From Escherichia coli (GTDB lineage: Bacteria; Pseudomonadota; Gammaproteobacteria; Enterobacterales; Enterobacteriaceae): 326 nucleotides of DNA. Made by a program: the position numbers and the translations under genes. Positions 1-326 of the stretch are shown here, one piece after another (the stretch's first letter is position 1; each line of letters opens with the position of its first letter). The stretch lies in assembly GCF_003334765.1 (NCBI RefSeq), contig NZ_QOWT01000142.1. The stretch is one strand, 5' to 3'. A model generated the notes under the pieces. The model did no database searches, had not been told where the DNA came from, and saw only the letters and a program-made list of their open reading frames with translations.

Positions 1-59
1 ATGTATAAGCAATAAAAAACAGCTTCAGGTAATAAGGAATATCTCAATTTTTAAACATA

Positions 60-326
60 AAATGCGAATTATTTAGTACAAAAAGCAGGGAAAGATTACG
101 AAAGCCCGCTCCCCGCAAGGACTGACGCGAGATAGTTTCTATCCATGGCTGCTTTTCGCATCTTACGTCTTAACCCTGCCTTGAATACCTTATCATTCGT
201 TAAAATATTAATAGCGATGTGCCGTATCCCTGAAAATAATTCTGCGGCGTTTCCTCTTCTTATTTTGCAGTCGTCTTCATTCATTACCACGTCCAGACGC
301 CAGTGCAGCTTATTCTCCACGTGCCA
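60..326 (-). mobile_element. Right-hand (transposase 3') end of an ISAs1-family insertion sequence; outer boundary unresolved, element continues past position 326
   Basis: ISAs1-family elements are about 1.2-1.4 kb with a single transposase ORF and short terminal inverted repeats, so the element end should lie a short distance past the stop codon, somewhere within 1-95. The start coordinate of 60 is a placeholder, not a measured boundary. The inverted repeat cannot be identified without the opposite end. Confidence 0.45.
96..326 (-). CDS. ISAs1-family transposase (H-repeat-associated protein), C-terminal fragment; 5' end lies beyond the window
   Basis: The six-frame track gives a 74-aa minus-strand ORF at 96..320 ending in a TAA stop (plus 96-98 'tta'). 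By my own translation the frame stays open through 321-326 (His, Trp), so the N-terminus is outside the window. The sequence [15 protein letters not shown]…[27 protein letters not shown] is recognised from memory as the C-terminal tail of enterobacterial ISAs1-family transposases (E. coli paralogs such as YhhI/YdcC/YbfD); no database search was run, and I cannot tell which paralog or host this is. Confidence 0.85.

Follow-up and report, generated by a model that had tools for sequence, protein, structure and literature searches.

The locus studied here raises the question of where an insertion sequence (IS) ends when only the last part of its transposase gene is visible, and of what the AT-rich DNA beyond the stop codon represents. 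The window is the whole stretch of Escherichia coli DNA analysed, 326 nucleotides in length. A preliminary description of the window set an AT-rich part (1-95) against a coding part of moderate G+C content, located the IS terminus and the IS/target junction in the AT-rich part, and predicted an element of the ISAs1 type with inverted repeats of 14-22 bp.

Genome matching gave 100% matches to a large number of complete genomes of E. coli, K-12 MG1655 and ATCC 8739 among them. In MG1655 the window (L001 4001-4326) stands at the distal end of RhsC, where the gene order is dtpD, phrB, ybgA, ybfD, ybfL, ybfQ, ybfC, RHS fragment, ybfB and rhsC. It contains the 3' end of ybfL on the minus strand and most of the ybfL-ybfD spacer. 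RefSeq annotates ybfD as a partial ISAs1 transposase, ybfL as an ISAs1 family transposase with an internal stop and ybfQ as an ISAs1 fragment. The compositional contrast described earlier was real: the G+C content is 20/85 (0.235) in positions 1-85 and 111/241 (0.461) in positions 86-326 (Fisher p = 2.9e-4), and with the original division the values are 0.263 (1-95) and 0.459 (96-326; p = 1.2e-3). The AT runs cited in support of the contrast are located at 11-20 (aataaaaaac) and 45-63 (caatttttaaacataaaat). The break in composition is the boundary 85/86, not the stop codon. No RNA families were found in an Rfam scan of the entire H-repeat array; around the junction, a promoter scan returned 2 promoter-like sites, which is not above chance (1.1 ± 1.1 expected), and a terminator scan returned 0 terminators. 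A 24-aa ORF at 44-118 on the minus strand was treated as a chance ORF. The features of the window are listed in Table 1.

Table 1. Features located in the window, with strand and supporting evidence.
Feature	Position	Strand	Evidence or remark
AT-rich 5' untranslated leader of outer H-repeat ybfD	1..85	-	runs from element position 109 to 25
Right-hand copy of the 10-bp target-site duplication	76..85	.	GTACAAAAAG on +, CTTTTTGTAC in element sense; equals outer ybfD positions 25-34
Right terminal inverted repeat (IRR) of the ybfL element, CAGGGAAAGATTACGAAA	86..103	.	inverted-repeat pairing; end of homology in other copies
ybfL stop codon TAA	96..98	-	falls within the IRR; element position 1278-1280 of 1290
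ybfL C-terminal 76 codons	99..326	-	ORF list, NF033564, PF01609, RefSeq; gene extends past 326

The ORF of the window encodes 76 residues from the C-terminus of an ISAs1-family transposase (NF033564, E 1.6e-15, 57.1 bits), and the score of this fragment falls below the cutoff of 70 solely because it is partial. The ORF also matches the end of PF01609 (Pfam DDE_Tnp_1), and its residues are identical to the C-terminus of YhhI. Full-length proteins score 418.3 bits (ATCC 8739 allele) and 412.4 bits (yhhI) on NF033564 (cutoff 70), and domain matches give the ATCC 8739 transposase a DDE-type architecture of PF13808 (E 1.5e-33) and PF01609 (E 8.9e-31). The intact ATCC 8739 allele, whose protein is WP_000420797.1, is named 'ISAs1-like element ISEc1 family transposase' in RefSeq. 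Read inward, the IRR CAGGGAAAGATTACGAAA and the left terminal inverted repeat (IRL) CAGGGAAAGATCACGTAA at L001 5375-5358 are identical at 16 of 18 positions, and both arms open with CAGGG (window 86-90 on the right). The partner repeat expected at the opposite end of the element is thus present; a repeat search over the array paired window 85/86-103 in inverted orientation with L001 5358-5375, and also with 5738-5756. The ybfL element occupies L001 4086-5375, which corresponds to 1,290 bp from terminus to terminus with one 378-codon ORF. Its other end lies 1,049 bp past position 326, short of the 1.2-1.4 kb that had been anticipated.

IS elements of the ISAs1 type are approximately 1.2-1.5 kb in length and carry a single ORF, and the ybfL element fits this range. 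Members of the family have been described with inverted repeats of 14-22 bp that begin with CAGGG and with 10-bp direct repeats (PMC11946415). The 18-bp, CAGGG-initiated repeats of the ybfL element agree with this description, and the 10-bp duplication CTTTTTGTAC, present in ATCC 8739-type genomes, falls within the 8-10 bp taken as the criterion for target duplication. By its NF033564 and Pfam matches, its CAGGG 18-bp inverted repeats, its length of 1.29 kb and its 10-bp duplication, the ybfL element is an ordinary ISAs1-family IS, and the family had been named correctly. Its closest described relative is the H-repeat (H-rpt) of the E. coli Rhs elements, equivalent to ISEc1, whose reference copy yhhI in RhsB has ~95-96% nucleotide identity to the ybfL element (58 differences in 1,291 columns). 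The two agree in length (solo yhhI, 1,291 bp), in their CAGGG... terminal repeats and in their 378-aa DDE transposase. The Rhs H-repeat has been treated as an IS-like element with yhhI as reference copy (PMC3715488).

The end of the element was demonstrated by aligning the 3' ends of ybfL, yhhI (RhsB), ydcC (RhsE) and the ybfD remnant, which share a common sequence up to ...CCCTG; beyond this motif, yhhI, ydcC and the ybfD remnant run into unrelated DNA. Because the homology among copies stops exactly after ...CCCTG, window 86 is the outermost base of the ybfL element. The IS terminus and the IS/target junction are therefore within positions 1-95, as had been proposed, at 85/86. The terminal repeat was also sought in that interval, and 10 of its 18 bases do lie there; the repeat itself is the G+C-richer 86-103, which takes in the stop codon, and the AT-rich DNA does not form the element's tail. 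Codon 18 of K-12 ybfL (L001 5180-5182) is TAG, the sole in-frame stop of the ORF, where yhhI and ATCC 8739 have CAA (Gln). Because of this TAG, the K-12 copy is unable to supply its own transposase, though its ends are intact.

On the minus strand, window 1-85 reads CTTTTTGTACTAAATAATTCGC..., and 81 of its 85 positions agree with the left end of the ybfL element at element positions 25-109. Five other leaders align with it, among them the 5' leaders of yhhI, ydcC, ybfL and ybfQ, which do so column for column. On the basis of this match and this alignment, window 1-85 is the decapitated left end of a second H-repeat, neither the tail of ybfL nor host DNA, although the AT-rich DNA beyond the element had been taken for the host target. 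The second copy is ybfD, and its start codon is located ~36 bp before window position 1. At the junction, this outer copy lacks its first 24 bp and thereby its left inverted repeat. Compared with ybfL, the ybfD element (L001 3132-4085) has also lost 313 bp internally, and its right repeat, CAGGACAAATTTACGAAA, is degenerate; besides being decapitated, the outer copy is defective at both ends. When a 100-nt junction-centred query was used, thousands of genomes matched it as two separate halves with the break at window 85/86. Where a genome lacks the junction, the two parts align apart from each other with this same break. Conserved IS sequence extending past position 1 had been named as an observation that would speak against a junction in 1-95; such sequence does extend past position 1, but it belongs to the second element, and in solo copies the homology ends at window 86.

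How one H-repeat came to adjoin another in this manner can be read from ATCC 8739, whose array is simpler: it consists of two copies, lacks ybfQ and keeps the ORF equivalent to ybfL intact. In element sense, the order in ATCC 8739 is RHS fragment, CAGGGAAAGATCATCAGAAGTTCA-CTTTTTGTAC, inner element 1..1290, and CTTTTTGTAC-TAAATAATTCGC... (TAAAT...). The segment CAGGGAAAGATCATCAGAAGTTCA-CTTTTTGTAC corresponds to outer positions 1-34, the inner element spans from its own CAGGG to its own ...CCCTG, and the sequence to its right is outer position 25 onward. Deleting the inner element together with one CTTTTTGTAC yields a canonical H-repeat left end with no indels relative to yhhI. Three copies of segment 25-34 are present with only two right ends, which matches the prediction of a nested insertion. 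Since outer 25-34 flanks both sides of an element with exact termini, the arrangement carries the signature of transposition, and since the window is 100% identical to ATCC 8739, its junction and that of ATCC 8739 derive from the same event. Insertion of an IS into another IS with a 10-bp target duplication is very probably the right explanation of the junction. From these alignments we infer that transposition made the duplication, and that the events took the following order. An older resident H-repeat (ybfD), located beside ybgA at the end of the RhsC locus, would have been the target. The inner element would have transposed into this outer copy just inside its left inverted repeat, thereby duplicating 10 bp (outer positions 25-34) and cutting the outer copy from its left terminus, which would have disabled it. 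A target duplication of approximately 8 bp had been forecast; a duplication does exist, but it measures 10 bp and is visible only in ATCC 8739-type genomes, not in K-12.

The distribution of the junctions was determined over 5,426 complete E. coli genomes with junction-centred queries of 36-38 nt. Each half of such a query is shorter than the 28-nt megablast word, and a match therefore needs an intact junction. Counts obtained with queries of 100-118 nt were inflated, separate pieces being merged into one 'place', and were replaced by those of the 36-38-nt queries. The IRR/leader junction of the window (query, window 68-103) was present in 1,348/5,426 genomes. The left junction of the ATCC type, which joins the stub to the IRL, was detected in 71/5,426 genomes (38-nt query), and the K-12-type ybfQ(..380)/IRL junction in 2,355/5,426 genomes (36-nt query).

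The left-hand CTTTTTGTAC duplicate is absent from K-12, and the nested reading of the window depends on the identity of the right ~580 bp to the ATCC 8739 element. A comparison of K-12 ybfL with the ATCC 8739 inner element revealed 42 differences in the first 708 columns and 0 in the last 583, a pattern with a probability of ~1e-11 under uniform spread, and the crossover lies near element position 670-710. Because the differences from ATCC 8739 are confined to the first 708 columns, the alignment marks K-12 ybfL as a recombinational mosaic. Its right part, including the junction of the window, would stem from the nested insertion. Later, in the K-12 lineage, homologous recombination within the inner element would have replaced the left ~700 bp and everything upstream, thereby removing the left duplicate and the 24-bp stub and bringing in the ybfQ fragment and ybfC. 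In other lineages, the ybfL/ybfD tandem pair would have collapsed into one hybrid copy. In strain 120899 (L007 3019-3995), the ybfQ/IRL junction leads into a lone copy whose left part resembles ybfL and whose right part resembles ybfD, including the 313-bp deletion of ybfD. This copy indicates that the pair collapsed by homologous recombination, and collapse of the 120899 type would explain why the ybfQ junction is commoner than the junction of the window.

Several arrangements were observed near other copies. At L001 5375/5376, the ybfL IRL begins exactly where the ybfQ fragment (H-repeat positions 1-380) ends, without a target duplication. This ybfQ/IRL junction may be half of a second IS-in-IS insertion; the reciprocal junction predicted for such an insertion at ybfQ gave no match in a search that needed an exact 28-mer. 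Just outside the left repeat of ybfQ (L001 5756-5771), the sequence CAAATGGAACGCAAAA is similar, in inverted orientation, to the beginning of the H-repeat ORF (AAATGGAACTTAAAA), a likeness that could be due to chance or could mark a scrap of another copy. In the RhsE locus (L003 9647-12013), ydcC, annotated as ISEc5-type, is located directly downstream of yncI, a divergent and frameshifted ISAs1 copy. The complete IRL of ydcC abuts the 3' region of yncI, forming a tandem H-repeat arrangement in which a duplication is not visible.

Target duplications of 6-12 bp were not found at the ends of five full-length solo copies, namely yhhI (L002 9850-11140), ydcC (L003 ~9637-10926) and copies in three other contexts (L008, L009 and L010, 1501-2791). 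Three of the five are full-length ISEc1 copies from a plasmid collection in which several 'plasmid' records are chromosome-sized or carry chromosomal genes. Either the flanks of the solo copies were exchanged by recombination between copies, or the copies arrived together with the adjoining DNA. The 10-bp duplication, though seen in 71 genomes, represents a single insertion event. A comparison with an empty-site allele had been proposed in the preliminary description, and a query joining both outer flanks of the array found no clean empty site in the genome collection. TUM14759 (L004 3190-3400) was the sole genome with both flanks close together, and it has an RhsC-ybgA allele without any H-repeat. 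This allele departs from K-12 over ~200 bp around the site and in the small ORF next to it, a divergence that prevents reconstruction of the place where the outer copy first inserted.

Three other explanations of the junction were weighed against nested insertion. In one, the copies would have formed a head-to-tail tandem array, by unequal recombination or as an IS dimer, and two independent deletions would then have removed the first 24 bp of the downstream copy and, in ATCC 8739, the upstream copy save 34 bp, with no nested transposition. H-repeat copies do stand in tandem at RhsC and RhsE, homologous recombination between copies clearly occurs, and the solo copies are free of target duplications, all of which accord with such an origin. 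However, both deletions would have to stop precisely where the middle element begins or finishes, with an overlap of exactly 10 bp (25-34), the duplication length reported for the family, and the three copies of segment 25-34 against only two right ends are those that nested insertion predicts; a tandem array trimmed by deletions is therefore improbable. The dimer form of this proposal can be compared with known structures. Tandem IS dimers with abutted ends, the (IS)2 junctions of IS30, IS21 and IS911/IS3-type elements, are reactive transposition intermediates in which a few bp lie between an IRR and an IRL that are both complete. The window resembles them in having two head-to-tail copies, the right end of one adjoining the left region of the next. 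Unlike in these dimers, no IRL is present at the window junction, the downstream copy begins at its position 25, and in ATCC 8739 the missing 24 bp are found beyond the opposite end of the inner element. A complete IRR and IRL do not abut here, 24 bp being missing, and the dimer junction was rejected; because the downstream IRL is absent from the junction and displaced in ATCC 8739, the window junction represents an insertion and not a dimer.

An adjacent deletion mediated by the IS, in which the right end of ybfL attacked its neighbour and removed the first 24 bp of a tandem downstream copy, would account for the exactness of the junction at the IRR terminus, and the ybfQ/IRL junction is equally exact at the opposite terminus and without duplication. 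It leaves unexplained why outer positions 1-34 lie directly outside the IRL in ATCC 8739 with a 10-bp overlap with the right flank, and we consider it very improbable. The picture drawn in the preliminary description, that positions 1-95 are the AT-rich tail of the element itself, holding the inverted repeat and followed by host DNA with a duplication of ~8 bp, draws on the facts that AT-richness starts just past the stop codon and that the inverted repeats of the family are indeed 14-22 bp. This picture has next to no chance of being correct, since the homology in solo copies ends 10 bp after the stop codon, positions 1-85 share 95% identity with the leader at the left end of this IS, the matching halves part at 85/86 across thousands of genomes and the duplication is 10 bp; it is refuted by the solo-copy ends, the leader identity and the 85/86 split.

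Nested insertion can be placed beside what is known of H-repeats and of the ISAs1 family. Zhao et al. (1993, J Bacteriol 175:2799) reportedly found an H-rpt of 1,291 bp in RhsB and a tandem set of three partly defective copies in RhsC. The ybfL element shares with yhhI a position at the distal end of an Rhs locus. It differs in lying within another H-repeat, in its mosaic structure and, in K-12, in the premature stop at codon 18. As found in ATCC 8739, it also keeps a 10-bp target duplication, whereas yhhI has none. IS1358 of Vibrio cholerae is a further ISAs1-family element, and its transposition has been documented. The ISAs1-family elements Francci3_2330/2941 of Frankia likewise have inverted repeats opening with CAGGG, a 10-bp direct repeat at the insertion site and a single DDE transposase ORF (PMC11946415). 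The Frankia elements were caught transposing into ordinary genes, whereas the ybfL element offers a historical footprint only, with a copy of the same IS as its target. Transposition of the H-repeat has not been observed in E. coli (PMC3032704), and ISAs1 circles were not detected in a study of the K-12 mobilome.

The element and this feature of the RhsC locus are already known and catalogued, and the current understanding of IS elements and Rhs loci is unchanged. Mildly new is only the preserved 10-bp footprint of an H-repeat inserted in an H-repeat. The main consequence concerns annotation: the label of the AT-rich stretch should read decapitated left end of the ybfD H-repeat, and the ybfL terminus should be set at window 86. 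The 10-bp duplication in 71 genomes provides sequence-level evidence for past transposition of a Rhs-associated IS in E. coli, and the mosaic and collapsed forms show that H-repeat copies now act as substrates of homologous recombination at the RhsC tip. There is a small chance that the nested copy, as a genuine H-repeat/ISEc1 transposition footprint, also reflects a preference of this IS for the AT-rich DNA that follows its own left terminus. If this were true, self-targeting would help to explain the piling up of H-repeats in tandem at the ends of Rhs loci, and the piled-up H-repeats would then be recombination substrates that swap Rhs toxin/immunity tips.
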